Positions 31,690-54,054 of a DNA stretch of 64,000 bases are shown here, in pieces. The notes below the pieces were generated by a model. It ran no database searches and was not told the origin of the DNA. It saw only the letters and a program-made list of their open reading frames with translations. Source of the stretch: a bacterium (lineage in GTDB: Bacteria > Vulcanimicrobiota > JAZDOK01); assembly GCA_043798715.1 (NCBI GenBank), contig JAZDOK010000004.1, positions 114,537-178,536 of the forward strand, read 5' to 3'. Position numbers and translations under genes: made by a program. Every line of letters begins with the position of its first letter. Within the stretch, counting starts at the first letter, position 1.

Positions 31690-33068
31690 TGCAGTTCCAT
31701 GGGATTCCCAAAATTGTTCTCTTTCTGATTCTATCCCTTCTTCTCATGACCCCTCTGACCGCTCAGGCCGGAAATGAGACATCACCCCCCGAAGAGCCCA
31801 TGCTCTCCCTGGATGAGGCTGTTAAGATCGCCCTTAAGAGCAATCGAGATATTCAGAGTGCCTCTCTTGGCGTCGGCCGCTCGAAAAATTCCGTCTCAGC
31901 CGCAAAATCGGCCCGCTATCCCCAGGTGAGCGTCGGCGCCAAGCAGTCGAACGTTCTCACCCCGCAGGATTTCATGGTCAATGCCGGAGCTCTGGGCACC
32001 TACCCTGGAATCGGGCCCATTCCGTCCGAGACCCGCTCCATCGGACAGATTTCCGGCTCCACCACCATGGTGAGCCTGGAACTTGAACAGCCCATCACGA
32101 GCCTTTATAAAGCCAACATGAACGTGGGAGCCCAGAAGGCCCAGCTCGGAATCGCCTCGGAGGGAGAGCGAAGCCAGAGACAGGTGGTGGTACAAAACGT
32201 CAAACAGTCCTACTTCGAGATGCTGAATTATCAGAACTCTCTTATGGCCACCCGCGACTCTCTTAAATTTCTGACGGATCTCCGCCGGGTGGTGAACAAC
32301 CAGATCGGACAGGGAACGGCACTTAAGACCGATCTTCTCCAGGTGAATTCTCAGCTTGCCGAAACCCGCTACCAGGAGTCGGCTCTGGCCGACCAGCTCA
32401 TCACTTTGAAGCAGAAATTCAACATCCTTCTCGGGCGACCCATCGAAACTCCGTTCAGTATCGCTCTCCCTGAAAATTTTCAACAACAGCTCGGGGAGCA
32501 GGAAGACCTTGCCTCTCTTGAGGCCATCGCCGCAAAACAGCGCCCGGAGGTCCTCCAGAGCGCCCTTCAAATCAGCCAGGCCGAGTACCAGCGCGAAGTA
32601 CAGCGATTTGACTGGTACCCGGATATCGGCCTCTACGCAAGCTATTTAAATCAAAGCAATTCCGGCATCCTCCCCGGCAACATGACCTTTGCCGGGATAA
32701 AAGGCCAATGGGCGGTCCTGGATTGGGGACGCCGCGACAACCAGGTGGCCGGCCAGTCCAAGGCCGTCGAACAGGCAAAAAAACAGTCCGAACAGGTTAG
32801 AGATCAGGTGATGACGGAGGTCAGCTCCTCCTGGCGCAAACTTGGCCTGATCCGCTCCCGCCAGGAGGCCGACAAAGCCGCCCTGGATGCGGCGGAGGAG
32901 AATTTCCGCATCACTAACAATCGTTTCAAGGAAAAGCTGGCCCTGACCAAGGACGTACTTCAATCGCAAGCCCAGTTTTCCCAGGCCCGCCAGCAGTATC
33001 AGAAATCGCTGATGGACGAGGCGGCCGTCCGGGCGGAAATAGATCGGGTAACAGGGAGGAATCCATGA
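31690..33068 (+). CDS. Outer-membrane efflux protein (TolC family)
   Basis: Signal peptide MQFHGIPKIVLFLILSLLLMTPLTAQA (ATG 31690, AGGAGG RBS). The rest is repetitive coiled-coil/beta-barrel OMF-like sequence. The track ORF starts upstream at 31482. Confidence 0.7.
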
Positions 33069-34444
33069 AAAAGCTTTTGACCATTTTTACACTATGCCTG
33101 GCGGCGACCCTGGGGGGATGCACCCAGGCGCCAAAACCCCAGCCCAGGCCCCTCGCCCTGGTTCAGGTGGAGACGGTGGAGAAAAACTCCGTCGGAGCGC
33201 CTGTATCCACCTACTCGGCCTCCATAGATGCTTACAGCCGCGTTCAGCTCACCTTCCGGGGACAGGGCTATATCACCTCCATCCACCTGGTCAAAGAACC
33301 CGATGGAAGCACCCGCCTGGTGGACCAGGGAGACGAAGTGACCGCCGGCACCGTGCTGGCCTGCCTTCGTCCCGCGGATTTTCAGAACCTGGTGAACAGC
33401 GCCCAGTCGCAAATGGACAGAACGGTGGCCGGAGTTCAGCAATCAAAGTCCCAGGTGCTCCAGGCGCAGGCGGCGGAGGTTTCAGCCAGGGCCGCCGTGA
33501 AGCAGGCGGAAGCGGCCGAAGGAGAGGCCCGGGCCCAGGTGGCCGCGGCCCAGGCTGATTACGACAATAACCGGGCCAACTATGACAGGGCCGTCAATTT
33601 GCTGGCCAGCGAGAGCATGGCCCAATCTGATTATGACTCGGCCAAAGCCGCCTGCGACTCCTCCAAAGCCCGCCTGGATCAGACCAAACAGCAGATTTAC
33701 GCGGCCCAGGCCCAGCTCAGGTCCGTCCGGGCCAAGGTTGGCGAGGCAGTAAGCTCCGTGGGCATGTCCGTCGCAGCGCTCAACTCTCAGAAAGCCGCCG
33801 TACTGGGATCCCAGTCCCAGCTGGATCAGGCTAAACTTAATTATTCCGATGCCTTCCTGAAAGCGCCGTTCAGCGGCGTCATCCTGGATCGCAACGTGGA
33901 ACTGGGAACCCAGGTAACACCTGGAACGGTGGCATTTGAAATAGTGGCTCTGGACACCGTCAAGGTCACCTTCGGGGTTCCGGACATGGTGGTAAACCAC
34001 CTTAGGATTGGCCAGAAGGTGGACGTCATCTGCGACGCCCTCCCCGGCAAACTCTTTCACGGACGCATCCTGACCCTGGCGGCCGGAGCCGACCCCAAGG
34101 AGCGGACCTTCCAGGTCGTCGTCAAGCTGGCCAACACCAATCACCTCCTTCGAGTCGGCATGATCGCCTCTTTAGATCTTACTACTACTAACAGGAAAGC
34201 GATGGTGGAATTATCCATCCCTCTTTCCTCAATTGTCGAGGATCCAAATAATCCCGGTCAATACTGCGTATACATCGTCGAGGGCCAGGGAAATAATCTC
34301 ATGGCCCGGCTCCGCCGGATAAAGACCGGCGAGGCGATTGGAGATCGCATCACCATTAAGGAAGGCATTTCTCACGGAGACCGGGTGGTAACAAGCGGCC
34401 TCCAGCTCATCAAGGACGGGGATCCCATAAAGATCGGAGATTAA
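33065..34444 (+). CDS. Efflux RND periplasmic adaptor (membrane fusion protein)
   Basis: Lipoprotein signal LGGC, a long A/Q-rich coiled-coil hairpin, and a C-terminal beta-barrel region. Confidence 0.75.
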   Translation: MKKLLTIFTLCLAATLGGCTQAPKPQPRPLALVQVETVEKNSVGAPVSTYSASIDAYSRVQLTFRGQGYITSIHLVKEPDGSTRLVDQGDEVTAGTVLACLRPADFQNLVNSAQSQMDRTVAGVQQSKSQVLQAQAAEVSARAAVKQAEAAEGEARAQVAAAQADYDNNRANYDRAVNLLASESMAQSDYDSAKAACDSSKARLDQTKQQIYAAQAQLRSVRAKVGEAVSSVGMSVAALNSQKAAVLGSQSQLDQAKLNYSDAFLKAPFSGVILDRNVELGTQVTPGTVAFEIVALDTVKVTFGVPDMVVNHLRIGQKVDVICDALPGKLFHGRILTLAAGADPKERTFQVVVKLANTNHLLRVGMIASLDLTTTNRKAMVELSIPLSSIVEDPNNPGQYCVYIVEGQGNNLMARLRRIKTGEAIGDRITIKEGISHGDRVVTSGLQLIKDGDPIKIGD

Positions 34445-34448
34445 TAAA

Positions 34449-37400
34449 GTGGCACACGGAAAAAGCGACGCCGACTATATCAAAACCACCAGCAACCTGG
34501 CCCGTTTCTGCGTCAACAACCCGTCCGTTGCGATCGTCTTCCTTCTGATCGCCATGGGCATCGGTTTCCTGGGCTATCGCTCAATGCCCCAGCGCAAGGA
34601 TCCGGATATCCCGATCCGACAGGCCGCCGTGCAGGTTCCCTGGCCGGGTAACACGCCCATGCAGATCGAGCTTCAAGTCACCAAAAAGATTGAGGACATC
34701 TGCGCGACGAACAAGAACTTCAAGAAAATTGAGTCCACCGTCCAGCCGGGCCTGTCGATCACTTACATCGAACTGGAAGACAGCATCAAAGACGCCGACA
34801 AGGAGTTCGACGACATAGGGATCAAGCTCATCAATGCAGCCCCGAGCCTGCCGCAGGGAGCCGGTCCCATCTACTACATAAAGGATTTCGGGGACACCGC
34901 GGCCCTGATGCTCACGGTAGCCAGTCCCCCCCTGTCCAATGTCGAGATCGAAGCCAGGGCGACGCCCATCGTGGAGCGGATCAATAAGACCCGGGCGAAG
35001 CGCAAGATCAAAAGTCCGGGATTTCCCTACACCATCGTCTACTGTTATCCCAAAAACGCGGACATGCGACTTCTCCAGAGCACCGTGGGAACCTTCCAGA
35101 TTGACGCCGCCGTGAGTGGATTTGCCCGCGACATCCGCCTCATCCAGGGAGAAGGCTTCCTCGGCATCGACCTTTTGAGCACCGGGAGCGAGCAGGATGT
35201 CATGGCCTATCTTCAAAATTACATGGCCCACAATCTGAAGCTCGAAGAGATGAATCCGGACACCTGGCTCCCGGTGGTAGTCCAGGATCCGCTACAGTTA
35301 AAAGATCGGCTGTCGGTTGCGGCCCCGGACCGCTATACCTACCGGGAGATGGACGATTTCACCCGAACCATAGCCGACGGCCTTCGTACCGTCCCCCTGG
35401 CCACTTCGGTGGGTCGCAAAGGTGCCCTGGGAGAGGCGATCTACCTTAACTATTCGCAGAGCCGGGTGGCCGCCTATGGGTTCAACCCGAGCAAATTGCC
35501 CGAGCTTCTGGGCGCCCGCAATATTACCGGAGCCTCCGGAACCGCCCAGGCCGAGGGACAGGGGATCCTCTTTCAGACGGCCGGTCAGTTCAAAAATCAG
35601 GACGAGATCGGAAACATGATGATAGGTCAGGCCCAGGGCTCGCCGGTTTACCTCCGCGACGTAGTGGGGATCACCCGCAGCTACAATCTGCCGGCCACCT
35701 ACCTCAACTACCTCACCTGGAAGAACGATGCCGGAGCGTGGCACCGAAACCGGGCCATCACCATCTCGGTGCAGATGAAGCCGGGGCAGAAGATCCATGT
35801 GCTCGGGAAACAGATCGACGATAAGCTCGCGGATCTGCGCCGCCTGGTGCCCTCCGACCTGGTCATCGTCCGCACCTCCGACCAGCCGCGGCAGGTGGCG
35901 GAGAACATCGAACTTTTGAACACCGCCCTCATCGAAGCCGTGCTTCTGGTGGTGCTCGTCTCCCTCATCGGTTTCTGGGACTGGCGCTCGGCCTTGCTTA
36001 TGGCGCTCTCCATCCCCCTTACCTTATCCATGACCTACGGTTGCATGAGCCTGCTGGGTCTTGACCTCCAGCAGGTCTCCATCGCCTCCCTCATCATCGC
36101 TCTGGGACTTCTGGTCGACAACCCGGTGGTGGCGGGAGACGCCATCAAGGTCTCCATGGCCTCCGGGCAGCCGGCTAAGATCGCCGCCTGGCTGGGGCCC
36201 ACGAAGCTCCTTAAGGCCATCACGTTTGCCACTCTCACCAATATTGCAGCCTACGTGCCGCTGGCCTTCCTGCCCGGAGATCCAGGGAAATTCTTATACA
36301 GTCTGCCTCTCGTCGTAGGCTCTTCCCTCATTTGCTCGGTCATTGTAGCCCAGGCCTTCGTACCGACCATCGGGCGCTTCCTCCTTCGGCCCCAGAAGGA
36401 GGCTTCCGTGGAAGCGATGCGAACCACCGGATTCACCCGCTACTACTATCGTTTTGCCAACTTCTGCGTTCATCACCGCTGGAGAGTGGTCGGCGTGTCG
36501 CTGGTTCTTCTCATGCTCGGGCTTTTCCTGGCCTCCAGTCTCCCGACCCAGATGTTCCCCGATGACGAACAGTATATCTCCACCGTGGACCTCTACATGC
36601 CCTGCAACGCCGGCCTTATGGCCACCAATATAAAGGCGAAGGAAGTGGAAAGAGCGATAGGCAATATCGCCACCAAGCTCGGGCAGGACCTTACAAAGCG
36701 GAATAAACCGGATGTGCACGTCATCAAGACGATCACCACCTTTGTCGGCGGCGGCGGCCCCCGCTTCTGGTTCTCCATACAGCCGGAGATGTCCATGCTA
36801 AGCTACGCGCAACTGATTGTGGAATGTAATGACAAACATTACACCAACACCCTGGTGGACCGCCTGATGGAACAGCTTCCGCAGCAGGTGGCCGGAGTCC
36901 GTATAGACGTGCGCAAACTCCAGAGCGGGACCTCCTTCAAAGTCCCGGTGCAGCTCTATGTGAGCGGCTCGGACAACGCGTGGAAACCGCTGGTGGGCCT
37001 CTCCAATAAGATCCAGCAGATCTACCGGGCGGACCCCCAGGCCATGTCCATCCAGGACGATTGGGGTGAGCCCATCGGGACGGTGAACCTGGAGCCCGAT
37101 CAGGACAAGGCCAACATGGTCGGGATTACCAGCCTGGACGTGGCCCGATCCATGGCCCTGGCCGTGCAGGGACTTCCCGTGGGCACAGTGCTGGAGGGTC
37201 AGTACAGCATTCCCATCATTGCACGCTTAAACTCCGATGAGCGGGCCCAGCTCTCCGACCTTCGCAACCTCTATATCTACTCCTCCGCCACCGGAAACAA
37301 GGTGCTTTTGAGCCAGGTGGTCAAGGGGAACATCGACCTCAGCCCGTATTATATTCAGCGCCGCAATTTTCACCGCTGCATCAAGCCGGGGGCCTTCCCC

Positions 37401-38075
37401 GTGCCTGAGGCCTGGGGCTCGACCATTTTCAAAAAGGCCTGGAAGCAGGTTAAAACTCTCACTCTTCCACCCGGCTACCGCATCGAGATCGGCGGGGAAA
37501 TGGAGAAGCAGCAGGAAAACTTCCCCCCCATGGGCATGGCCATGCTGATGTCCATCGTCGGAATCTTCCTTTGCCTGGTGCTGCAGTTCAACAGCGCCGC
37601 CAAGCCCTTTATCGTATTTGCCGCCGTGCCCTTCGGTCTGGTGGGCGCCCTTGGAGGCCTTATTCTTACGCACATGCCCTTCGGCTTCATGGCCTTCCTG
37701 GGAATCGCCAGCCTGGTCGGGGTCATAGTTAGCCATATCATCGTGCTCTTCGACTACATCGAAGTCATGCACTCCGAGGGGAAACCCATCATTGAGGCGG
37801 TCATCGATGCGGGCCTGGCCCGTCTTCGCCCCGTTCTCATCACGGTGTGCGCGACGGTCTTCGCCCTCTTCCCGCTGGCGGCACACGGAGGACCCCTCTG
37901 GCAGCCCATGTGCTTTACTCAAATCGGCGGCCTGACCCTGGCCACCCTGGTCACCCTGGTGCTGGTGCCGACCATCTACTGCATCTTCGTCCTGGATCTC
38001 AAGATCGTGAAGTGGGAAACCGCCCCCGCGACGGAAGCGGAGGGTGCGCTACCGACGGGAAAGAAAGATTCCTGA
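34449..38075 (+). CDS. RND efflux permease (AcrB/HAE1-like), unusually long at 1208 aa
   Basis: 12-TM architecture with two large periplasmic loops and characteristic TM4/TM10 regions. Confidence 0.85.
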   Translation: MAHGKSDADYIKTTSNLARFCVNNPSVAIVFLLIAMGIGFLGYRSMPQRKDPDIPIRQAAVQVPWPGNTPMQIELQVTKKIEDICATNKNFKKIESTVQPGLSITYIELEDSIKDADKEFDDIGIKLINAAPSLPQGAGPIYYIKDFGDTAALMLTVASPPLSNVEIEARATPIVERINKTRAKRKIKSPGFPYTIVYCYPKNADMRLLQSTVGTFQIDAAVSGFARDIRLIQGEGFLGIDLLSTGSEQDVMAYLQNYMAHNLKLEEMNPDTWLPVVVQDPLQLKDRLSVAAPDRYTYREMDDFTRTIADGLRTVPLATSVGRKGALGEAIYLNYSQSRVAAYGFNPSKLPELLGARNITGASGTAQAEGQGILFQTAGQFKNQDEIGNMMIGQAQGSPVYLRDVVGITRSYNLPATYLNYLTWKNDAGAWHRNRAITISVQMKPGQKIHVLGKQIDDKLADLRRLVPSDLVIVRTSDQPRQVAENIELLNTALIEAVLLVVLVSLIGFWDWRSALLMALSIPLTLSMTYGCMSLLGLDLQQVSIASLIIALGLLVDNPVVAGDAIKVSMASGQPAKIAAWLGPTKLLKAITFATLTNIAAYVPLAFLPGDPGKFLYSLPLVVGSSLICSVIVAQAFVPTIGRFLLRPQKEASVEAMRTTGFTRYYYRFANFCVHHRWRVVGVSLVLLMLGLFLASSLPTQMFPDDEQYISTVDLYMPCNAGLMATNIKAKEVERAIGNIATKLGQDLTKRNKPDVHVIKTITTFVGGGGPRFWFSIQPEMSMLSYAQLIVECNDKHYTNTLVDRLMEQLPQQVAGVRIDVRKLQSGTSFKVPVQLYVSGSDNAWKPLVGLSNKIQQIYRADPQAMSIQDDWGEPIGTVNLEPDQDKANMVGITSLDVARSMALAVQGLPVGTVLEGQYSIPIIARLNSDERAQLSDLRNLYIYSSATGNKVLLSQVVKGNIDLSPYYIQRRNFHRCIKPGAFPVPEAWGSTIFKKAWKQVKTLTLPPGYRIEIGGEMEKQQENFPPMGMAMLMSIVGIFLCLVLQFNSAAKPFIVFAAVPFGLVGALGGLILTHMPFGFMAFLGIASLVGVIVSHIIVLFDYIEVMHSEGKPIIEAVIDAGLARLRPVLITVCATVFALFPLAAHGGPLWQPMCFTQIGGLTLATLVTLVLVPTIYCIFVLDLKIVKWETAPATEAEGALPTGKKDS

Positions 38076-38122: not shown

Positions 38123-38150
38123 AAAGGCCAAGGTTATGCCTTGGCCTTTT
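38123..38150 (+). terminator. Rho-independent terminator after the RND operon
   Basis: aaaggccaagg-ttatg-ccttggccttt, a perfect 11-bp stem followed by TTTT. Confidence 0.6.
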
Positions 38151-38208: not shown

Positions 38209-38490
38209 ATGTTGGAATATATTTTGGGCGTTGAGGAGGCCAGAAAGAATCTGGGCGATTTGATCGTCCGTGTTGCCAGAAAAAAACAACCTGTTGTGAT
38301 CACCCGCCGGACGAAAGAAAAAGCGGTCCTTGTAAACTACGAAGAGTACAAGAAACTGGAAGAAATGGCGGAGTCGGTTGCGGCCAATGACGTTTCCCTG
38401 GCATTAAAAAGAATCAGACGTTCGGTGGCTGCTGAGGGATTATCGGTTGAGACGGTTGAAATGTCTATCCGCGAGGTTCGCGGCAGGTGA
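38209..38490 (+). CDS. Phd/YefM-family antitoxin
   Basis: N-terminus EARKNLGDLIVRVARKKQPVVITRRTKEKAVLVNYEEY; 4-bp overlap with the downstream PIN gene; a TTGACT-N17-TAAGAT promoter lies upstream. Confidence 0.7.
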   Translation: MLEYILGVEEARKNLGDLIVRVARKKQPVVITRRTKEKAVLVNYEEYKKLEEMAESVAANDVSLALKRIRRSVAAEGLSVETVEMSIREVRGR

Positions 38491-38894
38491 AAGTGGTCCT
38501 TGATACCAACACCCTGGTTTCAGCAATCGGCTGGTCGGGACCTCCCCAAAGAATTTTAAATGCGTGCTTGCAAGGAAAATTCGAGCTTTACATCAGCCAG
38601 GCTCTCCTGGAGGAATTTATCCGGGTCATTTCCCGACCGAAACTCAAGGTTATTGCGCAGCATCCGGATTTGCCCTTGATATTATCCTGGCTCTATCAGC
38701 CATCGCACATCGTTCGCCCCAAAACCGTTATCAATGCCATTAAGAAGGACCCCGCGGACAACAAAGTGCTTGAATGCGCCGTGGAAGCAGGCGCCGAGGT
38801 TATAGTTTCCGGCGACAAGCACCTTCTTGCCCTGGAGGAGTTTCAAGGGATCCAAATACTGACGCCCGCCGCTGCAACCAGATTGTTTTTATAG
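38487..38894 (+). CDS. PIN-domain toxin (TIGR00305-type)
   Basis: VLDTNTLVSAI..., and conserved acidic residues of the PIN fold. Confidence 0.7.
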   Translation: MKVVLDTNTLVSAIGWSGPPQRILNACLQGKFELYISQALLEEFIRVISRPKLKVIAQHPDLPLILSWLYQPSHIVRPKTVINAIKKDPADNKVLECAVEAGAEVIVSGDKHLLALEEFQGIQILTPAAATRLFL

Positions 38895-38967: not shown

Positions 38968-40203
38968 CTACCACGATATATCCGGCCAATCACTCATTAA
39001 AAGTTGGCGAATCTGAGTGGCTGGGAAATCGTTATTATTTGCAATGCGCAAGGCCAGGTTCTGAATAAATTTCACGGAGACCGCAGGTTTTCCAAGAGCG
39101 GCGGCGGCGTCTCTCAGTGCGTCGACCGCTCTGACCAGAGTTGCCCACTCGATTTCGTAGCCGTATCCTTCAAGAAGCAGGTCCATGGCCCGCAAGGCCA
39201 CGGCGAACGAGAATTCGGGAGCGTCAAACCTGTTCTGATAAGCAGCCGTTATTAACGTGCCGGGGTTCAGTGTCCCATTTAAGGCGCACGTGTAAGCAAT
39301 ATCCATATGTCCGGCACTGCCGGCCGCTGCGAACCAGTTTCCGGGGTTGTCCGAATCGTCAATGAGATCCTGGAGGATGCGCCGGGTTTCGAGCTGCGGA
39401 TATTTTTTTACGATCGCACGATACTGGTTGAGATAGGTGTGGCCTACCCGGAGAAAGCGGCCATATTGCTTATAAGCCTGCTCCCAATGGCCCTCCTCTA
39501 TCAAGAGACGCTCGCAGAAACAGGTTATGGCCGTATCATCGTATCCCAGCGGGGAGCGGCAGTCTTCGGCGAAAGAAATAGCTTCTTCGATTTTCCCCTG
39601 GCGGCGCAGAGCTTCCGCCCAATAGTATTGCTCGGACCAATGTCGGTGGGAAGCTGATTTTAAAAGCGATTGGAGTTCATTATATCGTCCGGCTTCCAGC
39701 AGGCAGGAGAAGCACATGATGTTGTCCGGTGAATAGATGAACTTTCCGGAAAGCGAGGATAAGCTCGAGACCAACTCCAACAATCGGTCCGCCCACTCGC
39801 GGATCAGGTCCGGCTCTTTGCAAATTATCCCCCAAATCCGGCGCACCTGAAAAAGATAGTCAACGCCGTCATCCTGAACGGCCGAATAAAGCCTGTCAAT
39901 CCATTTGCGCCTGGTGGCCGTATCAGCCGGCGCCTGGACAAGGAGGGGAAGGAGTTTGTCAAGCGTGAGCCAGACGGCTGTCCCAAGTGCCCCCGAGGAG
40001 GAGTCCACCGCCTGAAGCGCCGGCCAGAGGCGTTCGCAAAGAGTCACGACGCCCTCCCCGGCACGAATAGGATCGGCCTTCGATGTTCGCTTGATCTCCG
40101 AAGTTGCCTCATTCAGCCTTTTACAGGCCAAAACAGACCCCCGCCACCCGAAGGCTCTGGTTCTTAAATATCGCTTAAACTGCCAAGCCGCTGACGTCGT
40201 CAT
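38968..40203 (-). CDS. Hypothetical 411-aa alpha-helical protein inside the toxin-antitoxin/defence island
   Basis: No recognisable motif; a possible TPR-like stretch (YYWAEALRRQGKIEEAISFAED). Confidence 0.4.
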   Translation of the reverse strand: MTTSAAWQFKRYLRTRAFGWRGSVLACKRLNEATSEIKRTSKADPIRAGEGVVTLCERLWPALQAVDSSSGALGTAVWLTLDKLLPLLVQAPADTATRRKWIDRLYSAVQDDGVDYLFQVRRIWGIICKEPDLIREWADRLLELVSSLSSLSGKFIYSPDNIMCFSCLLEAGRYNELQSLLKSASHRHWSEQYYWAEALRRQGKIEEAISFAEDCRSPLGYDDTAITCFCERLLIEEGHWEQAYKQYGRFLRVGHTYLNQYRAIVKKYPQLETRRILQDLIDDSDNPGNWFAAAGSAGHMDIAYTCALNGTLNPGTLITAAYQNRFDAPEFSFAVALRAMDLLLEGYGYEIEWATLVRAVDALRDAAAALGKPAVSVKFIQNLALRIANNNDFPATQIRQLLMSDWPDISW

Positions 40204-40342
40204 TATTTTTCAATTCTTTTAAATGATTTGAATTTGACCTGATAGCTTAAGGTCGTCCAGATTTCGGTTTCAAGACTCTTGACATTCTCTACATTCGTGT
40301 TGACGGAGAAATCAATTCCGATTCGGGGAAAAGAGGATACTG

Positions 40343-40398
40343 CCTTTTTAGCACGGCAGATTCTCATTCGGCGTAAAAGGCTCTGACCCCTTTATTCC
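40343..40398. repeat. Junction repeat, modules W-X (cctttttagcacggcagattctcattcggcgtaaaagg + ctctgacccctttattcc)
   Basis: Matches 44461-44515 with a few mismatches. Confidence 0.8.
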
Positions 40399-40450
40399 TG
40401 GCGAAACGAGGACGACGACAGGGCAGGAGCATCAGCGACAGCCTCAAATA

Positions 40451-40750
40451 TCAGGAGGCGCGTGGCAGCTTTCGGATGTCTTTTAATTCCTCTTCAATCC
40501 TCTGTTTTTCTTCATCCAGGTCGTAGTCGTTCTGGAGGCCGAGCCAGAACTGGGGGGAATTTCCGAAATAACAGCTGAATCTAAGAGCCGTATCTGCAGT
40601 AATTCTCCGCTTCTTTTTCAGAATCTCAGAAATTCTCGTCTGGGGTATTTTAGTTTCTTTCGCAAGGCGATAGGGTGTGATCCCGAGCGGTTTTAAGAAC
40701 TCCTCATCCAGTACCTCCCCCGGATGGATGTTTGCAAGTTTCAGCATCAT
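40451..40750 (-). CDS. higA: HigA-family antitoxin (XRE helix-turn-helix)
   Basis: IHPGEVLDEEFLKPLGITPYRLAKETKIPQTRISEI matches the HigA helix-turn-helix. Confidence 0.85.
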   Translation of the reverse strand: MMLKLANIHPGEVLDEEFLKPLGITPYRLAKETKIPQTRISEILKKKRRITADTALRFSCYFGNSPQFWLGLQNDYDLDEEKQRIEEELKDIRKLPRAS

Positions 40751-40765: not shown

Positions 40766-41047
40766 CTAATGATAGTCAACGATTTCTACGTTATAACAAT
40801 TCCCGTTTTGCCATTCGAAACAAATCCTCCATCGGTCATTGATGCGGATGCTGTACTGTCCTTCCCGATCGCCTTTTAGCCTTTCAAGAAAATTCGAGGG
40901 CGGCACCCGCAAATCATTGAGCATATGGGAATTATTGAGCATCCTTAACTTTCTCCTGGCGATGGCCTGAATGTCAAAAGGCAATTTTCTCGAAGGGAGG
41001 CCATCCCATATTTTTCTGGTTTCTTTCGAGCGAAATGACTGAATCAC
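40766..41047 (-). CDS. higB: HigB toxin (RelE/ParE superfamily)
   Basis: FRSKETRKIWDG...NDRWRICFEW..G.CYNVEIVDYH; toxin-first HigBA gene order. Confidence 0.85.
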   Translation of the reverse strand: MIQSFRSKETRKIWDGLPSRKLPFDIQAIARRKLRMLNNSHMLNDLRVPPSNFLERLKGDREGQYSIRINDRWRICFEWQNGNCYNVEIVDYH

Positions 41048-41302: not shown

Positions 41303-41618
<316 letters not shown>

Positions 41619-41646
<28 letters not shown>

Positions 41647-41712
41647 GCTTTGTCGTAAAGGGCTCTGACCCTTTTCCCCCTATTCTGTCAATTGTGTAGA
41701 CGTGACCCCTAT
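41619..41712. repeat. Junction repeat, modules Y-X-Z; module Y overlaps the 3' end of brnA
   Basis: Y = cagccgacgcacaggaacgcgcggctgagctttgtcgt (identical at 44517-44554). X = ctctgaccctttt. Z = tattctgtcaattgtgtagacgYgacccctat (also at 43040-43071 and 44585-44617). Confidence 0.85.
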
Positions 41713-41713
41713 G

Positions 41714-42976
41714 TCATAAGGCAAACCAGGGATAGACAATCGTTCCAGCTCTTTTAAAGGACGAATCCCCGCCATACACAAGAGCGGCCGGATCGTTGGA
41801 GCGGCTGGAGAGATTCCGCCAGTCATTCAATCCTTTGAAAAAGTCGCCCGCAATGGTCTGAGCTGATTTAACCTCCACCGGAGTCAGCCGGCCACCCTGT
41901 TCGACGAGGAGATCCACCTCCCGTCCGGATGTGTCACGCCAGAAACTCAGGGCAGGCAGCTCGCCCCGGTTCAAGAAGTTCTTGTAGAATTCGGATAAGA
42001 CGTAACTTTCAAAAATGCCGCCCTTCATCGCGTGATGGTGAAGCTCCTCCGGGAATCGAATCTGAAGAAGGAAGCACAAAAGACCGGTGTCCAGGAAATA
42101 AAGCTTCGGGCTTTTGATAAGGCGTTTCCCGAAGTTCTGGTGATGAGGTCTGAGAAGCACGATCAGAAAGCTGGCCTCCAGAACCGAAATCCAGCGTCTT
42201 GCGGTCGTATGCGTGATGCCGCAGTCTGAGGCCAGGGACGACAAATTTAACAGCTGGGCGTTCCGACCGGCACAGAGCCGGACAAATCGGCCGAAGGACT
42301 CCAGGTCGCCCATCTTCAAAACATTCCGGACGTCCCGCTCCAGGTAAGTCTGGTAATAATTTCCCAGCCAGTCCTGCGGGGGTAGCCTTTTGTCGTGAAT
42401 CCGTGGATAAAAACCTGTAAAAAGGACTTCTGCCAGTTTTTTTCCCGGTGCTCCGGTACCCTGATAAGTTTTTCTTCCCAGTTCCGAAAGAGTAAAAGGC
42501 TTATGACCGGACAGTTCGGCATGGGAAAACGGCAAAAGGTGCAGAACGGCACATCGTCCGGCCAGAGATTGGGAAATGCCCTGGAGAAGGAGAAAATTAT
42601 GCGAGCCTGTCAGGATGAATTGTCCCGCTTTATTCTGTTCATCCACCATGACTTGAATATAGGAAAACAAGTCCGGGACGCGCTGGGCTTCGTCCAGAAT
42701 AACCGGGCCTTCAAACTGCGAGAGAAACCCCCGGGGATCTTCCATAGCAAAAGCGCGTTGATCGGGAAGCTCTAGAGTTGAGTAGGCGTAATCTTTAAAT
42801 ACGGCTCTGACCAGGGTGGTTTTGCCCGATTGACGCGGCCCCGTGACTGTTACGACCGGATATCGGCCGGCGGCCTCCTTGAGTTTTTTCGCCAGGGTTC
42901 GAGGAATCATGGCCGTACCTCTTTTGCTATTTGAATATCCAATATTCAATTTACATGATATCTCGAATTTTGTCAA
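41714..42976 (-). CDS. AAA+ ATPase with a C-terminal DUF4143 domain (COG1373-type)
   Basis: Walker A GPRQSGKTT, Walker B VILDEAQ, and a C-terminal DUF4143-like region. Confidence 0.75.
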   Translation of the reverse strand: MTKFEISCKLNIGYSNSKRGTAMIPRTLAKKLKEAAGRYPVVTVTGPRQSGKTTLVRAVFKDYAYSTLELPDQRAFAMEDPRGFLSQFEGPVILDEAQRVPDLFSYIQVMVDEQNKAGQFILTGSHNFLLLQGISQSLAGRCAVLHLLPFSHAELSGHKPFTLSELGRKTYQGTGAPGKKLAEVLFTGFYPRIHDKRLPPQDWLGNYYQTYLERDVRNVLKMGDLESFGRFVRLCAGRNAQLLNLSSLASDCGITHTTARRWISVLEASFLIVLLRPHHQNFGKRLIKSPKLYFLDTGLLCFLLQIRFPEELHHHAMKGGIFESYVLSEFYKNFLNRGELPALSFWRDTSGREVDLLVEQGGRLTPVEVKSAQTIAGDFFKGLNDWRNLSSRSNDPAALVYGGDSSFKRAGTIVYPWFAL

Positions 42977-42999: not shown

Positions 43000-43093
43000 A
43001 AGGGCAGCCTGCCCCCTTTATTCTCGGCATCTTTTCCCCTATTCTGTCAATTGTGTAGACGCGACCCCTATATCCTTCGACCCCTATATCCTT
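43000..43093. repeat. Junction repeat, diverged X plus Z, followed by a tandem 16-bp duplication (cgacccctatatcctt, twice)
   Basis: Module Z lies at 43040-43071; the 16-mer copies are at 43062-43077 and 43078-43093. Confidence 0.8.
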
Positions 43094-43361: not shown

Positions 43362-44348
43362 TCAAGGCTTGTCCTTCGTTGGCGGCGGCAATTGCTTGAC
43401 GGCGCGGTCGAAGTCGGATTCGAGGTGCCGATCCTCGATATTGCGAAACTCGACGAACTCGCGTTCCGAGTGGGTTCGGGCCAACTCGGCCGACACTTTA
43501 CCGGCGTTCTGTAATATTTCCCGGTCGTTCAATGTCAAAAAACCCTCCAGCTTCGTGATCCAATCGTTCATCGTCATGGCTATCCGACGCTCGGCCTGGG
43601 ACTCGGCAAAGATGAGATACTGTTCGACGAGGTTATTGAGCGCACGCAGCTCTTCTTCATTTAAATAGTTTTTTGCAATGGCGACGTCCGATTTGCGGAT
43701 ACGCGCCCCCTCCCAGTTAGTGAGACCCATGTTCGGCATTCTGCTGTCAGCGCGGAACAAGATAACCTCGACGGCGGTCTGGCCGTGAATAGCGTAATGC
43801 ACCTTGTTTTGCACCGTAGCGAAGAACTCCTGGGTGAGCGGGTGGTCCTTGTCGTAGTCTATGCTCGTGGCGTAGATGTCTGTGATTTTCTGGTAAAAAC
43901 GCCGCTCGCTCGTGCGGATATCCTGGATGCGCCGGGTGAGCTCCTCGAAGTAGTCGTTTCCTGCTTTCGGGTTTTTCAGACGCTCGTCATCCAGCACAAA
44001 GCCCTTGATGATGTACTCTTTAAGCTTGTCTGCGGCCCACTGACGGAAGCGCACGGCCACCGGGCTACGCACCCTGAAACCCAGGGCCAGGACCATGTCG
44101 AGGTTGTAATGAGCCACCTCGTACTGTTTACCGTCTGCGGCAGTTGTTCGGAAAAACCGAACAACTGAATCTTCCTCCAGTTCTTCGTCCTCAAAGATGT
44201 GTTTGATGTGTTCACTGATGGTGCCCTTGGCCTTGCCGAACAACTCCACGAGCTGCTTCTGGTTGAGCCAGATGTTCCGGTCTTCGAGGCGAACGTCGAG
44301 TTTCGTGCGGCCGTCCTCGCTCTGGTAGATGAGAATCTGGTTCATCAC
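43362..44348 (-). CDS. RhuM-family protein (virulence/defence-associated, DNA-binding)
   Basis: N-terminus IYQSEDGRTKLDVRLEDRNIWLNQKQLVELFGK...VRFRQWA; overall pattern like rhuM. Confidence 0.7.
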   Translation of the reverse strand: MMNQILIYQSEDGRTKLDVRLEDRNIWLNQKQLVELFGKAKGTISEHIKHIFEDEELEEDSVVRFFRTTAADGKQYEVAHYNLDMVLALGFRVRSPVAVRFRQWAADKLKEYIIKGFVLDDERLKNPKAGNDYFEELTRRIQDIRTSERRFYQKITDIYATSIDYDKDHPLTQEFFATVQNKVHYAIHGQTAVEVILFRADSRMPNMGLTNWEGARIRKSDVAIAKNYLNEEELRALNNLVEQYLIFAESQAERRIAMTMNDWITKLEGFLTLNDREILQNAGKVSAELARTHSEREFVEFRNIEDRHLESDFDRAVKQLPPPTKDKP

Positions 44349-44460
44349 AGGCTCCTCACGTTTAGTAGCCCGTGCTGGCTGAGGATGGCGGCAAGGTTGG
44401 TCTTGGCGACATCATCGGCAAAGGCGCTGTCACGGAAGACGCAAGAGAAAAGAGGACAGA

Positions 44461-44617
44461 GCCTTTTTAAGCACGGCAGATTCTAATTCGTCGTAAAGGG
44501 CACTGTCCCCTTTATCCCAGCCGACGCACAGGAACGCGCGGCTGAGCTTTGTCGTTCGTCGTAAGGGGCTCTGACCCTTTTATCCTTATTCTGTCAATTG
44601 TGTAGACGCGACCCCTA
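44461..44617. repeat. Most complete junction repeat: modules W-X-Y-(tail of W)-X-Z
   Basis: Contains a copy of the 3' end of brnA (module Y) detached from any brnA gene. Confidence 0.85.
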
Positions 44618-44744
44618 TGACCTTGAATTTTCCCTCCCAGATCATCTCCTTAAAAAAAACATGAAGTCGAGCATCCCGACTGATTGTACCACACCCACTG
44701 TGACAAAGACTGTCATTGTGATTTCAGATGACGATTTTTTTATA

Positions 44745-44965: not shown

Positions 44966-45766
44966 ATGCAAGAGGCTAAAAAAAGAACAGGTAAAAAATC
45001 TCCCATAAAAAAAGCACCTCTTCGTCTTCCCGGACAGTTCTTGGATGAGAAGATAAAAGATATAAAGTATGACATGCTATGGAATGTCTTTGTGTGCCTT
45101 ATGTATTTAACTTCGCTTGTAATCGCATGGCTGTTCTACTTGTTCCCAAAGACATTTTTGTTGCCTCTTTTACTTCTACTGACCCTTGTTTCTGTACTTG
45201 TTTTTATTTTCTATGGGACAAGAATTTCTAAACAATGGAAGGAAATAGACAACCACAAGCTCGGCCGCGTCGGGGAAATAGAAGTCGGGCAGACCTTGGA
45301 AAAATTACGAGAGCAGGGCTGCCGGATCTTTCACGACATTCAGATGGGAAATTATAATATCGATCATGTCGTTTTATCTACTAAGGGGGTTTTCGTGATT
45401 GAGACGAAGACGCGAAGAAAACCGGCAGAAGGCCGCACTGAGATTGTTTATGAGGGTGATTTGATTAGAATAAACGGTTCGCCGAATAAAACTGACATTG
45501 AGCAGGCAAAAAGTCAGGCCTGCGGTTTTCATAAATTTTTCAAGCTAATTACAGGGAATTCTTATTTTGTAAGGCCTGTTATTGTGTATCCTGGTTGGTA
45601 TGTGACTTCTTCTTTTGATCCCGAGAAAAGCGATATGTGGGTGCTAAACCCCGATCAACTCAGTCAAAAGATCGCAGCTCAACCTGAAGTCATCAAACCC
45701 AAGGAACTGGAGACTATTGCAAATCAATTGGAATACCATATACGCGAAAAATCTGATTTAAAGTAG
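44966..45766 (+). CDS. NERD-domain (nuclease-related) protein with N-terminal TM helices
   Basis: GRVGEIEVGQTLEKLREQGCRIFHDIQMGNYNIDHVVLSTKGVFVIETKT is the NERD core. GC content is about 38% against roughly 60% for the surrounding genome. Confidence 0.75.
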   Translation: MQEAKKRTGKKSPIKKAPLRLPGQFLDEKIKDIKYDMLWNVFVCLMYLTSLVIAWLFYLFPKTFLLPLLLLLTLVSVLVFIFYGTRISKQWKEIDNHKLGRVGEIEVGQTLEKLREQGCRIFHDIQMGNYNIDHVVLSTKGVFVIETKTRRKPAEGRTEIVYEGDLIRINGSPNKTDIEQAKSQACGFHKFFKLITGNSYFVRPVIVYPGWYVTSSFDPEKSDMWVLNPDQLSQKIAAQPEVIKPKELETIANQLEYHIREKSDLK

Positions 45767-50551: not shown

Positions 50552-50986
50552 TCAGACCTCGTCGATCGAATAAATCGGCCTTCCATCGAAATGGGTATCC
50601 TTCTTGTCCTCTGTGTGCGCGAAAATACGCTTGACGAAGGCGATGAGCTCGGCGGGATTGAAGGGTTTAGTCAGGTAACAATCCACCCCGGATTGCCACC
50701 CCTTGAGAATATCTCCATCCTGGGCCTTCGCGGTCAGCATGATGATCGGTATGTCCGCGGTCTCCGGGTTGGATTTCAATTCCTTCAGCGTCTGAAAGCC
50801 GTCTTTTCTGGGCATCATGATGTCCAGGACGATAAGGTCCGGCCTCTGGACGGCGACTTTCTTCAGACATTCCACTCCGTCATAGGCGCAGTCCACCTCG
50901 TACCCCAGCTTCATCAGATTGATCTGGATAAGCCGAACGATATTTTTATTGTCGTCCACCGCCAATATTTTTCTCTTTCCTGCCAT
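50552..50986 (-). CDS. Single-domain response regulator (CheY-like receiver)
   Basis: ILAVDD...D55 (LIVLDIMMP)...LTAK acidic pocket and conserved Lys. Confidence 0.85.
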   Translation of the reverse strand: MAGKRKILAVDDNKNIVRLIQINLMKLGYEVDCAYDGVECLKKVAVQRPDLIVLDIMMPRKDGFQTLKELKSNPETADIPIIMLTAKAQDGDILKGWQSGVDCYLTKPFNPAELIAFVKRIFAHTEDKKDTHFDGRPIYSIDEV

Positions 50987-51010
50987 TAGATTAATCCTCC
51001 TTTAGTCGCT

Positions 51011-52756
51011 TCAACTGGATGATTCTTCTTCACTGCTTTCGGGGGTTTCATACTTTATGGGGAGAGTAAAGTTGAATGTGGAGCCGAAACCGGGCTGGCT
51101 CTCCACCCAGATCCTGCCCTTATGGGATTCCACCAGATTTTTTACTATGAAGAGGCCTATGCCGGCCCCCTCGGTCATCCTGGTATCCTCGGTATTGACC
51201 CGATGGAACTTGTCGAATATTTTGTCCATATGCTCTTCGGGAATCCCCACGCCCTGATCCGTGATGGAAAAATGGACCTCGTGATGATTGGCGTAAACCT
51301 TGAGCGTTACGGTCCCGCCCTCCGGAGAATACTTGACGGCATTCCCCAGAAGATTGACGAGAATCTGGTCCACCTTGTCCTTGTCCGCAACAATGGTGGG
51401 CAGTTTGTCTTCCTCCATGTTAAGAGCGAATTCATGCATGGTGGAGGAGGACTTAATGGCCTGAAGCGAACGTTTGACCACGGGAGGAATCTGCATGGGG
51501 GCCATCTTGAGGTCCAGGCTCCTCCCGGCCTCGATGCGGGAGATCGTCAGAAGATCGGAGATAAGCCGGATCAGGCGATCGCATTCCTCATCTATGATGT
51601 GGTAGAATTCCATCCTGGAATCCTTATCAAAGGAGTCGTCCTCATCATCCAGCAGGGTGGATATGAAACCCTTGATGGAGGTCAGGGGGGTGCGCAATTC
51701 ATGGGAGGCGGTAGAGACAAACTCGGTTTTCAATTGTTCAAGGCGTTTTATTCTGGTAATATCGGTGAAGGATGCGACGACTCCGACATCAGTGGAGGAG
51801 GATTCCGGCTCCGGGACGATGTTCAGCTGAAAAGTCAGCTCCTGCGTCGAACGGGGGTTCAGAGTGAGTTCATCGTTTATGACCTCCCGCTCTCTTATGG
51901 AGCGGTTCAGGAGATCCAGGACCTTCAGCTCTTTGATCGCATCGGTGGCCCTCAGATTCCTCGGATCGCCTACCTGCACGTTCAATATTTCCCTGGCCTT
52001 CGGGTTACAGAAGAGTACTCGCCCGAAACGATCGAGGACCAGCACTCCGGTCAGCATGGACAGCAGCGTCGTCTCCAGCTCGGTCTTCCTGGCCATAAGG
52101 GTGATGAAAGTCTTGGTGTTCTGGATAATGACGGAGGCCTGCCGGGCCAGGGTACTCAGGATCTGGGTATCTTCGTCGTTGAATTCCTCGTTATAGGACT
52201 TGTTGAAAACATGGAGAACCCCGATGGTCTGGGGCGGCTCTGAAGGGCCCTTCCGAAGGAGGAGCGGCATGCTCAGGCTGGAGCGCACTCCCAGCATGTT
52301 GGCCAAGTTGGCATCCCAGAGGGGATCATTAAGGGCATCGTTCACCAGCACCGGGACCCCCTCCCGGAAGACCTTGCCGCTTACGCCGTTGTTCGGATCC
52401 ACCCGGAAGAGTCGCAGTTCCTTGTCGCCTATCCCCTTGGCCGGTTTCTGGGCGAGCAGTTGGGTTTCTTTTTCATCCGGAAGCATGAAGACGCACTTCT
52501 CCGCCTGCATGATCATGCCCACCTTGTTTACGAGCTGTTTCAGGGTGTCTTCGATCCCGGGAATCGTCTCGACCTCGGGCGAAACCTCCTGCATGGAATT
52601 ATACGCCGTGAGGCGGACTTCCATCTCCTCATGGTATTTTTCAAGCTGGGTCGCATAGGCCTGAAGACGGTGATATTCCTCGATGGAAACATTCTGAGGC
52701 TCTTTTACGCCCGCATTAGCTGCCTTGTTAAGCTCGTTTGACATCGTTATCCCCAC
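51011..52756 (-). CDS. Cytoplasmic sensor histidine kinase with a GAF domain
   Basis: H-box ASHELRTPLTSIKGF, N and G boxes (LGNAVKYS, GAGIGL); no TM segments. Confidence 0.85.
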   Translation of the reverse strand: MGITMSNELNKAANAGVKEPQNVSIEEYHRLQAYATQLEKYHEEMEVRLTAYNSMQEVSPEVETIPGIEDTLKQLVNKVGMIMQAEKCVFMLPDEKETQLLAQKPAKGIGDKELRLFRVDPNNGVSGKVFREGVPVLVNDALNDPLWDANLANMLGVRSSLSMPLLLRKGPSEPPQTIGVLHVFNKSYNEEFNDEDTQILSTLARQASVIIQNTKTFITLMARKTELETTLLSMLTGVLVLDRFGRVLFCNPKAREILNVQVGDPRNLRATDAIKELKVLDLLNRSIREREVINDELTLNPRSTQELTFQLNIVPEPESSSTDVGVVASFTDITRIKRLEQLKTEFVSTASHELRTPLTSIKGFISTLLDDEDDSFDKDSRMEFYHIIDEECDRLIRLISDLLTISRIEAGRSLDLKMAPMQIPPVVKRSLQAIKSSSTMHEFALNMEEDKLPTIVADKDKVDQILVNLLGNAVKYSPEGGTVTLKVYANHHEVHFSITDQGVGIPEEHMDKIFDKFHRVNTEDTRMTEGAGIGLFIVKNLVESHKGRIWVESQPGFGSTFNFTLPIKYETPESSEEESSS

Positions 52757-52783
52757 ACACCTTTATAATATTGTTCCCAAGTT

Positions 52784-53656
52784 CTACGTCCCGGACTTTT
52801 TTCCCTGCTTGGACGGATCGGAAAAGGAAGCAAGGGAAACCACGCTTCCTAGCTCAAGGGTAAAGGCGCCCAGATACTGGGCATCGCTCCCGCTCTGAAG
52901 AATATAGGTTTCATTCTCCTTCAGGTAATGGGGCAGAAAATGGTGGGAGCGGCCGCCCACAATTACGGAAATCCGGGGAAAAGCCCGGGCCAGCGCCATA
53001 TCCTCCTCCAGCCCAAGTTGGGAAAGAAGGATGACCACCTGGACCCCTTCATCGCTGAAATGCTGGAGGACTTCCCCAACAACACCGGCCGGCGCCTCAA
53101 GGTGGAGATTACCCGTCATTTTCACGGGGTAAGAGAGGCCGAAAATTCCGACTGACAGAGGCCCGACCTTCTTCTGCACCCACCTCAGGACAAAAGGAGG
53201 AGGCATCTTCCCCCCTGCAAAAACATTCGAACAGACAAATGGGAAAGCCGCCTTTTCCGCCCATTTCGCCATCGCCGGGAGCGGCCATCCAAAATCGCCC
53301 TCCCCGAGACCAACCGCATCATACCCGATGGCGTTCATGATCTCCACCATCGGCATCCCCTCAAAACGCTCACAGAGAGGATGCCCCCGGGACCAGTCAC
53401 CGCTGTCCACCAGAAGAGACGGCCCATCCTTCCACCGCTTTCCCTTTACCAGGGTGGAGACAAAAGGCATTCTCTCGACCTGCCCGTGAAGATCATTGGT
53501 ATAAAGGATCTGAAGGCCCGTGATATCGGGGATACCAATTTCAAATCTTTCTTCCGTTGAATCCGCCTCCCTGAAGAAGAAAGTCCCCCCGCCGCCGGCA
53601 GGGAGAACCTCGGGAATAAAAAAAGGGCGAAGGCAAAGCCCCCGCCCGAAAAACAC
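52784..53656 (-). CDS. Calcineurin-like metallophosphoesterase (5'-nucleotidase N-domain-like)
   Basis: ILYTNDLHG and GDW..GH motifs. Confidence 0.6.
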   Translation of the reverse strand: MFFGRGLCLRPFFIPEVLPAGGGGTFFFREADSTEERFEIGIPDITGLQILYTNDLHGQVERMPFVSTLVKGKRWKDGPSLLVDSGDWSRGHPLCERFEGMPMVEIMNAIGYDAVGLGEGDFGWPLPAMAKWAEKAAFPFVCSNVFAGGKMPPPFVLRWVQKKVGPLSVGIFGLSYPVKMTGNLHLEAPAGVVGEVLQHFSDEGVQVVILLSQLGLEEDMALARAFPRISVIVGGRSHHFLPHYLKENETYILQSGSDAQYLGAFTLELGSVVSLASFSDPSKQGKKSGT

Positions 53657-53665
53657 AACCTGGCA

Positions 53666-53905: not shown

Positions 53906-53945
53906 ACCTACACCTCCTCTCCTACTATACTATCCACTTACCTGT

Positions 53946-53974
53946 ATTATCGCACCAATCTCCTGAAATGTAAA
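53946..53974 (-). promoter_or_regulatory. Sigma-70-like promoter TTTACA-N17-GATAAT for the 53666-53905 gene
   Basis: Reverse complement reads ccTTTACAtttcaggagattggtgcGATAATac; it shares ctttacatttca with the promoter at 50414-50442. Confidence 0.5.
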
Positions 53975-54054
53975 GGGATATTTGTTAACAGAATGTAAAT
54001 TATTCGTGAATAAATTGTTAAAACCCTACTCCTTTTCCTGATGCGTTGGGGCCT

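Follow-up and report, generated by a model that had tools for sequence, protein, structure and literature searches.

What is a 411-codon open reading frame (ORF) doing between two toxin-antitoxin (TA) modules of a bacterial chromosome, and does its address say anything about its function? The gene, hereafter X, lies in a 64,000-nucleotide stretch of DNA (the window) from a member of the Vulcanimicrobiota (lineage JAZDOK01; GenBank assembly GCA_043798715.1, contig JAZDOK010000004.1, positions 114,537 to 178,536). An earlier reading of the letters of the window, referred to below as the original prediction, had proposed a cytosolic helical scaffold or sensor and, from its position, a novel defence or abortive-infection effector. 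Here, we report that X is the cargo of mobile DNA in several unrelated vehicles, namely a Tn3-family transposon, plasmids and small cassettes bounded by attachment (att) sites at guaA, and we weigh what a protein that travels in this way may do.

Gene X and its protein family

The gene was found at exactly the coordinates originally given, between the PIN and HigBA modules:

38968..40203, minus strand: gene X, ATG start, 411 amino acids (aa), predicted soluble α-solenoid of a large unannotated family (ORF, homologs, conserved N-terminus, AlphaFold2 model)

X is a real gene, and the identical sequence is present in a public record of an NCBI metagenome-assembled 'bacterium' (P0001, V2A78_01375), where it is called as a 359-aa protein starting from V53. 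This public call begins at an internal GTG with a good Shine-Dalgarno sequence (GGAGG) and drops 52 conserved residues (window 40045-40203); the ATG at 40203 lacks an obvious Shine-Dalgarno sequence and shares the letters TAATG with the stop codon of a 54-aa ORF. Sequence comparison indicates that the 411-aa reading is the correct one, and not the public 359 aa, because residues 1-52 carry the family-invariant W7, F9, R14, W20 and E36 and fit the family consensus better than the remainder of the protein (58% vs 48% agreement). The overlapping 54-aa ORF (40203-40367) covers a junction repeat described below, has no homolog and is probably no gene. A search of the 5′ region of X for unusual RNA structure found none (z -0.88).

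A word-indexed search returned more than 417 homologs of about 405-435 aa, and an exhaustive profile search covering 1.84 billion cluster representatives returned 2,629 clusters at 50% identity with E ≤ 1e-3, and 704 with E ≤ 1e-30. Homologs sharing 35-59% identity with the window protein occur in Armatimonadota, Auribacterota, Acidobacteriota, Desulfobacterota and alpha-, beta- and gammaproteobacteria. With invariant motifs that include VDSSSGALG, CE, YP and KWFAAAK, the family appears from its sequences to be unusually conserved for a solenoid.

The AlphaFold2 model, built on a 60-sequence alignment, is all-α with a mean pLDDT of 92.9 and a pTM of 0.85. Reading the domain division from secondary structure, the model comprises an ordered N-terminal strap, a long-helix bundle (residues 23-152), about five TPR-like hairpins (159-323) and a C-terminal bundle. 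The hairpins are predicted to be paired helices of 10-14 residues, stacked as helix-turn-helix (HTH) units. VDSSSGALG forms an invariant loop in the N-terminal helical bundle, and the N-terminal strap is conserved and basic (+7 over 52 residues); the C-terminal bundle is variable, the last ~50 residues being the least conserved part of the protein. The highest 19-residue Kyte-Doolittle mean is 1.39, as expected for a protein said to lack transmembrane helices, and together the model and hydropathy uphold the proposed cytosolic, non-membrane helical scaffold.

The reported lack of a recognisable motif was also borne out: nothing exceeded the curated cut-offs of Pfam, NCBIfam, PADLOC or PHROGs. 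Pfam gave only TPR-type matches below cut-off at residues 166-216 (E about 0.005), the best being ANAPC3 (17.6 bits; cut-off 27.2), TPR_14 (17.8; 23.5) and TPR_2 (14.7; 27), and no TPR profile reached its curated gathering score. The "possible TPR-like stretch" of the original prediction is hence echoed by the solenoid model, but not by a significant sequence match. No family was returned by NCBIfam or PHROGs, nor by PADLOC-DB v2 at E ≤ 1. Searches of PDB sequences by phmmer, using X and the family profile, gave noise only (E ≥ 0.065), and a structure search with the model retrieved only weak, generic TPR/HEAT solenoid neighbours and yielded no fold assignment. A clear metabolic domain, which would have spoken against a role in conflict, emerged from none of the profile or fold searches run. 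The term "effector" fared worse: X lacks any domain for catalysis, pore formation or nucleotide binding, and its conservation is unusually high for an immune sensor.

Rare natural fusions attach X to an Xre-type HTH domain (P0127), TPR plus PRiA4_ORF3 (P0138), an ST7-like TPR protein, DUF6930 or DUF6933. The partners join the conserved HKWxF N-terminus of X directly via a Lys/Arg-rich linker, and these fusions show X in use as a module. A comparison of the extensions of four fused proteins (P0125, P0130, P0189 and P0221) revealed no significant shared domain. Literature searches by accession numbers and partner-domain names found no mention of any member of the family.

X as cargo of mobile DNA

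X is present on 23 plasmid records, 12 of which are conjugative or mobilisable. On Burkholderiaceae replicons (plasmids of Burkholderia vietnamiensis G4, Burkholderia sp. SFA1, Paraburkholderia fungorum and P. aromaticivorans, and a Ralstonia solanacearum megaplasmid), the gene order is tnpA-tnpC-X-tyrosine recombinase, with stop-to-start overlaps at both tnpA/tnpC and tnpC/X (4 nucleotides (nt) for the latter). The copies share only a block of ~7.1-7.4 kb, with terminal inverted repeats at its ends:

L086 3760-11138 (Paraburkholderia fungorum pBIL), also in L083, L102 and L103: ~7.4 kb Tn3-family transposon (orf176, tnpA, tnpC, X, recombinase)

The block encodes a Tn3-type DDE transposase, TnpC, X, a DUF3701+Phage_integrase recombinase co-directional with X and one small unknown ORF (orf176). 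Related elements of the Tn4651 type have ordinary cargo after tnpC, e.g. mer or czc genes; in the Burkholderiaceae transposon, X is essentially the sole cargo. The two tnpA-tnpC-X variants carry X proteins that are 80% identical, which points to a single lineage. A family-wide link of X to Tn3 tnpA/tnpC was considered and rejected, such genes being absent from the 80 genome loci analysed below. One P. aromaticivorans strain harbors the transposon on three plasmids, and pBVIE02 carries an extra copy of the recombinase gene, next to which lies another Tn3-family transposase gene, distinct from the first and oppositely oriented.

A distinct vehicle is found in gammaproteobacterial loci, where DNA homology is limited to a block of 2.0-2.7 kb flanked by direct repeats. 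Each repeat has three parts: the 3′-terminal portion of a HigA-antidote gene, a conserved non-coding stretch of about 150 nt with a hairpin (AATAAGCCAT-N18-ATGGCTTATT), and the core ATCGAGTGGGAGTGACCGG, which is the 3′ end of guaA. This core contains GAGTGGGA, the experimentally defined recombination core of the GIsul2-family att sites at guaA, and the GIsul2 integrase acts in trans too, mobilising att-bounded units that lack an integrase (PMC9376610). One cassette boundary fits the published GGGAGTGACGGGCACTGGC at 18/19 positions. X-bearing cassettes measure 2.2-3.5 kb and each contains X plus one TA module of varying family, in layouts such as:

GuaA, att, X-Gp49-HigA, att
GuaA, att, HigB-HigA-X, att, Fic and further genes, att, TadA
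GuaA, att, two small ORFs, att, GNAT-TacA, Xre-X-orf123, att

In gammaproteobacteria from marine and sediment habitats, the guaA-tadA hotspot harbors tandem cassettes of 0.8-3.5 kb, each bounded by a copy of the guaA 3′ end; they carry TA pairs, Fic genes or X, and an integrase in none:

L044 7066-12533, L008 7909-10113, L052 5439-9818 and L007 6935-9444: guaA-tadA cassette arrays

An Rfam scan of a gammaproteobacterial cassette returned nothing.

The phylogenetic signal of X is that of mobile cargo. Across the same genomes, mean identity is 78.5% for X vs 68.2% for GuaA (r 0.11), and 79.8% for X vs 61.1% for RNase R (r 0.37). Because X is more conserved than, and poorly correlated with, the core genes it adjoins, we conclude that it spreads horizontally, its divergence being decoupled from that of its chromosomal flanks. 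Ten loci have X directly at the 3′ end of a tRNA-Leu gene, a site of the kind at which islands classically attach, and some genomes have 2-3 copies of X. GuaB/GuaA, TadA, MltF, RNase R and RlmB recur near X, and guaA, tadA, rnr and tRNA-Leu beside it mark integration hotspots. No X was found by tblastn in 50,697 phage records, nor among the 2.9 million viral contigs of IMG/VR.

Genomic neighbourhoods of the family

A pattern-limited scan of 185,579 species genomes gave 477 confirmed matches, from which 80 genome loci were taken and all flanking ORFs clustered; ORF calls and cluster labels for these loci are heuristic lower bounds. X has no obligate partner gene. A conserved operon partner was sought both in the neighbour clustering of 79 loci and in a Pfam scan of 121 immediate neighbours, and none was found: no neighbour cluster occurs in more than 15 of the 79 loci, and the 121 neighbours match 111 Pfam families, the commonest (HigA-type HTH) in seven.

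What recurs is a kind of neighbour. X neighbourhoods appear to be rich in TA, Abi and defence genes. Recurrent TA-type neighbours include two HigB Pfam families with HigA, Gp49 with a HigA-type antidote, GNAT with TacA, HipA/HipB and Xre-type antitoxins; other recurrent conflict or mobile neighbours are DUF4143 ATPases, UvrD-like helicases, SbcC-like ATPases, Fic proteins and insertion sequence (IS) elements. A TA gene lies within two ORFs on either side of X in 31/78 loci, a lower bound, vs 17/187 control positions in the same loci; for any TA, defence-like or IS gene, the counts are 40/78 X loci vs 32/187 control positions, in loci that are phylogenetically non-independent. About 12-17% of immediate neighbours match PADLOC models at E ≤ 1e-10, among them SoFic, AbiEii, GajB/UvrD-NERD, PD-Lambda-2, PglX and PDC-S01/S04. 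The homologs sit overwhelmingly in accessory, TA-rich, defence-rich or mobile settings rather than in the conserved housekeeping contexts that would have told against the original prediction.

Distant loci present the same kinds of neighbours. The nearest relatives of the window X have AbiEii, a NACHT protein and a PLD-like protein nearby; another distant locus contains IS110, HigBA, AbiEi/AbiEii, a PIN_3-RHH pair and a PRiA4_ORF3 protein; a further one has Phd-ParE near X. In Auribacterota (L094), UvrD/AddB, AAA_15/23, DUF4143 and a CBASS-like gene are near X. The CBASS-like gene, at 8280-11582 and ~1 kb downstream of X, is a single gene of 1,100 aa with Prok-E2, ThiF (E1), JAB and patatin domains, whose sequence suggests CBASS-accessory-like enzymes fused to a phospholipase. 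DUF4143 ATPases co-occur with X in the window, L018, L029 and L094.

Three unrelated lineages have a protein ending in a SEC-C motif, of the SecA metal-binding type, next to X (L001 4812-6209, L002 7209-7883 and L091 8247-9155), the bodies of these proteins being TPR, UPF0149/YecA or DUF1186. The PRiA4_ORF3 protein that is fused to X in P0138 adjoins it in L097. The SEC-C and PRiA4_ORF3 families may form a functional network with X; the fusions and SEC-C-motif neighbours reveal no function of X. The two closest relatives of the window X with usable context, L091 and L092, share a ~107-aa protein without family match that ends exactly 31 nt upstream of X (L091 6646-6969, L092 6643-6969). As a partner it was discarded: it is confined to these two loci, and absent from the window and all other loci.

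The island in the window

In the window, X belongs to a segment of ~8 kb, from about 38.1 to 46.4 kb, between an RND efflux operon and a glycosyltransferase gene. The GC content of this island is 0.40-0.55 vs 0.59 in the flanking RND efflux genes, and neither an integrase nor a nearby tRNA was found in it. Besides X, it contains the following features:

38209-38490, plus strand: Phd/YefM antitoxin (Pfam PF02604, E 1.7e-14)
38487-38894, plus strand: PIN_3 toxin (Pfam PF13470, E 4.7e-22)
40328..40404, no strand: junction repeat copy A (repeat search, alignment, pattern search)
40451-40750, minus strand: HigA-type HTH antitoxin (Pfam PF01381, E 1.7e-7)
40766-41047, minus strand: HigB toxin (Pfam PF05015, E 1.9e-18)
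41617..41713, no strand: junction repeat copy B, abutting the stop of the DUF4143 ATPase gene
41714-42976, minus strand: AAA_14+DUF4143 ATPase (Pfam; PADLOC PDC-S01)
43008..43093, no strand: junction repeat copy C, upstream of the DUF4143 ATPase gene
43362-44348, minus strand: RhuM family protein (Pfam; PADLOC PDC-S05)
44447..44624, no strand: junction repeat copy D, upstream of RhuM, the fullest copy with all four modules
44966-45766, plus strand: NERD nuclease-related protein (Pfam)

The Phd-PIN_3 pair is convergent with X, 73 nt from its stop. HigB-HigA lies upstream of X on the same strand, with a sigma-70-like promoter candidate at 41082-41054 (10/12 matches plus a TG extension), and the 247-nt spacer between HigA and X carries junction repeat copy A. 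The DUF4143 ATPase and RhuM proteins match their PADLOC models with E values of 7e-110 and 1e-140, respectively. The stretch separating HigB from the DUF4143 ATPase gene contains an 80-aa ORF without family match (41404-41646, plus strand), which overlaps copy B at its 3′ end.

The repeat that the original prediction had noticed beside X is real: the copy at 40328-40404 has counterparts at three further junctions of the island and at no other place in the 64 kb (0 chance matches expected). Copy A combines a hairpin module (AAAGGG-N6-CCCTTT) with the module GAAT.AGAATCTGCCGTGCT.AAAAAGGC..TCCTCTTTTC. X and RhuM share an upstream segment of ~80 nt that is about 85% identical, and a 40-nt module of copy B is identical to positions 44516-44555. 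The modules include a 22-nt core that occurs exactly three times, and never outside the island (pattern searches over the 64 kb, 0 chance matches expected). An Rfam scan of the island gave no match for the repeat. These junction repeats may mark cassette boundaries or shared regulatory sites, and, by analogy with the guaA cassettes, we infer that they would partition the island into units, one of which would be Phd-PIN_3 plus X.

A search for guaA-type att sites in the window found none beyond chance. The metagenome collection contains one further exact match to the repeat core TCTACACAATTGACAGAATA, at L093 1466-1485 (contig Ga0194125_10166670), in non-coding DNA upstream of a 338-aa transposase, which by eye its N-terminal sequence places in the IS110 family. 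This 20-nt match prompted a search of the window for an IS110 transposase, which has no homolog there.

The flanks of the island are ordinary chromosome. Upstream (33065-38075) are genes for an RND efflux pump and its adaptor, and a strong terminator hairpin lies near 38125-38150; downstream (50552-57642) are a GT4 glycosyltransferase, a GAF-PAS histidine kinase with its response regulator, and the flagellar export genes FlhA and FlhB.

What X may do

The variety of its TA partners bears on the role of X. In the units that contain X, they comprise two HigB families, Gp49, GNAT/TacA, Phd-PIN_3, Phd-ParE, ParE and AbiE, and X may precede or follow the TA pair or stand without any. Because the partner family differs between loci, the link of X is not specific to HigBA. 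Since partners are interchangeable, their order variable and their presence dispensable, the simplest reading is that the TA pair would be a generic stabiliser and X the selected trait.

We propose that X acts alone, binds a conserved macromolecule and confers a selectable trait in conflicts between hosts and mobile genetic elements, the TA pair serving to retain the cassette, and give this explanation a probability of roughly 0.45. X would be the gene that small DNA units, mobile or open to mobilisation, carry as payload, with the accompanying TA pair as an addiction module. Non-enzymatic, it would bind a conserved cellular or invading macromolecule via the conserved surface that sequence conservation suggests on its N-terminal and central parts; such binding would explain 37-59% identity across phyla without a catalytic motif. 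The outcome could be defence, exclusion or protection of a target. Co-expression of X with the TA operon is probable where a HigA/Xre-type repressor gene precedes it, and in the window X with Phd-PIN_3 (or HigBA-X) looks like one such unit in an island that the repeats would partition. A bolder version, which we regard as doubtful, holds that X founds a new single-gene conflict family: a lone non-enzymatic α-solenoid, spread by three minimal vehicles, that would protect the cell or the mobile element, either by defence against phages or plasmids or by guarding a conserved cellular target against toxins.

Several observations weigh against our proposal. No experiment and no homology links X to a function. 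The defence or abortive-infection role originally suggested is matched by defence-rich, TA-rich or mobile contexts but amounts to guilt by association. An effector domain is lacking in X, and its conservation far exceeds that usual among proteins that sense phages. One gammaproteobacterial clade, with at least 60% identity, accounts for most of the 80 loci, and neighbour counts are not independent events. The att cassettes were seen in gammaproteobacterial loci; in the window, a repeat of its own stands at the junctions and a guaA-type att is absent. Finally, some contexts are plain, without conflict genes (L081 and L092), the neighbours being glycoside hydrolases in L092 and RPE65/DUF2141 in L081 and L095.

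Such plain contexts (L092, L081 and L095) are what an ordinary cellular scaffold or regulator unrelated to conflict, e.g. a stress-response adaptor with uninformative neighbours, would lead one to expect, and strong purifying selection, a generic protein-binding fold and positions by guaA, rnr and tRNA-Leu that are kept across genera fit it as well. We nonetheless consider this explanation unlikely, though the best placed of the alternatives, given a distribution so patchy that the scan of 185,579 species genomes yielded 477 confirmed matches, the multi-copy genomes, carriage by plasmids and a transposon, and an att-bounded DNA block whose divergence is decoupled from the flanking housekeeping genes.

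X might instead be a dedicated third component of HigBA-type TA modules, e.g. a co-regulator, a chaperone or an adaptor that helps to turn over the antitoxin. The order HigB-HigA-X, in one orientation, is common to the window and ten gammaproteobacterial loci, with a 2-nt gap in seven; a HigB of the PF09907 family with HigA precedes X in L040 and L069; and one natural fusion joins an Xre-HTH to X (P0127). The window HigB and HigA are 39-41% identical to the gammaproteobacterial pairs, about as diverged as X, and within the gammaproteobacterial group the identities of X and its adjacent HigB correlate (Spearman 0.49, p 0.002). A value of r = 0.99 for X vs HigB divergence was discarded, as it is driven by one outlier and becomes moderate without it. 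Against this role, HigBA-type neighbours occur in only roughly a quarter of the loci, most X genes having no adjoining HigBA, and the TA family varies in the cassettes; X stands upstream of the toxin in X-Gp49-HigA or alone in the transposon; and in the window HigA and X are parted by the 247-nt spacer with its junction repeat. X does not resemble a type II TA component, with no TA domain in Pfam or NCBIfam, a length of 411 aa and no constant neighbour; nor does it resemble a chaperone, with no match to SecB or another chaperone domain in Pfam and a model that is an α-solenoid rather than a SecB-like fold. The HigA proteins are of ordinary length (99-104 aa) and lack the C-terminal extension typical of chaperone-dependent antitoxins. 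A third-component role is improbable on balance.

Less probable again is an anti-defence or establishment factor that would neutralise a conserved host defence or restriction component on entry of the element. X as the cargo of a transposon hopping among large Burkholderiaceae plasmids, its presence on 23 plasmids (12 conjugative or mobilisable), the lack of an enzymatic domain and the high conservation expected of a protein with a conserved host target would all suit this role. Most known anti-defence genes reside in phages and viruses, however, and X is absent from all 50,697 phage genomes and 2.9 million viral contigs; moreover, many chromosomal copies are in integrase-less cassettes by TA or defence genes, an address typical of defence and not of anti-defence genes.

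In Tn4651 resolution, TnpT helps TnpS, the tnpT and tnpS genes being divergent around the res site. A comparable accessory function for X in transposition or site-specific recombination, as helper of the tyrosine recombinase or as a regulator alongside TnpC, is very improbable: translational coupling to tnpC, a place directly upstream of the DUF3701-type recombinase with almost no other cargo, related recombinases near X on two other plasmids and in L077, and a weak integrase SAM-like signal in the P0130 extension (E 0.016, below cut-off) are outweighed by the absence of a Tn3 transposase or TnpC near X in 80 genome loci, by the lack of a recombinase at most X loci, window included, and by the single lineage of tnpA-tnpC-X.

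Relation to known systems and significance

The fold and the lifestyle of X are of known kinds, an α-solenoid on the one hand and an island or mobile element residence at the side of TA genes on the other. The closest fold class is that of TPR/HEAT/ARM α-solenoid scaffolds, e.g. the TPR subunits of APC/C, importins and TPR receptors of the PlcR/Rap type. Toxin-antitoxin-chaperone (TAC) systems, in which HigB-HigA is followed by a SecB-like chaperone as in Mycobacterium tuberculosis, resemble the HigB-HigA-X loci in having a toxin, an antitoxin and a third gene on one strand around a HigBA-type module, but X is not SecB-like, its antitoxins have no extension and it mostly occurs without HigBA and in the company of other TA families.

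TA pairs embedded in Tn3-family transposition modules have been described (Lima-Mendez et al. 2020, PMC7157771). Like them, X lies between transposase and resolvase genes, near the presumed res of a Tn4651-like transposon, and elsewhere it accompanies the same TA types (PIN_3, Phd/YefM, Gp49-HigA, ParE); unlike them, it is a single gene of 400 aa with no TA domain and no partner in the transposon. The integrase-less CR2-sul2 units (PMC9376610) share with the X cassettes the guaA 3′ termini with GAGTGGGA as boundaries and the lack of an internal integrase, but the latter carry X and a TA pair instead of an ISCR element and a resistance gene and are putatively mobile, and the window itself does not use the guaA att. 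PADLOC PDC-S01 (DUF4143 ATPase) and PDC-S05 (RhuM), both present in the window island, are likewise candidate single genes, defined by recurrent occurrence in islands of defence or TA genes; X has neither a PADLOC match nor an NTPase or nuclease domain. The X family, its motifs and its role as payload of att cassettes and of a minimal Tn3-family transposon are undescribed.

This family encompasses thousands of clusters in many phyla, conserved, confidently folded and wholly unannotated, and its address as cargo of minimal mobile elements is of the kind that yielded new defence and addiction systems. Whatever X does, gammaproteobacteria of sea and sediment have, at the guaA 3′ end, tandem small att cassettes that combine TA modules with a payload, and these arrays extend the GIsul2-type model of mobilisation in trans past resistance genes. 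X is a well-supported and experimentally accessible candidate for a role in conflict or defence, directly testable in cultured carriers such as Burkholderia vietnamiensis G4, Paraburkholderia fungorum, Cereibacter and Ralstonia solanacearum. Should X produce a phenotype on its own, it would represent a rare defence or protection function exerted by a plain binding scaffold.

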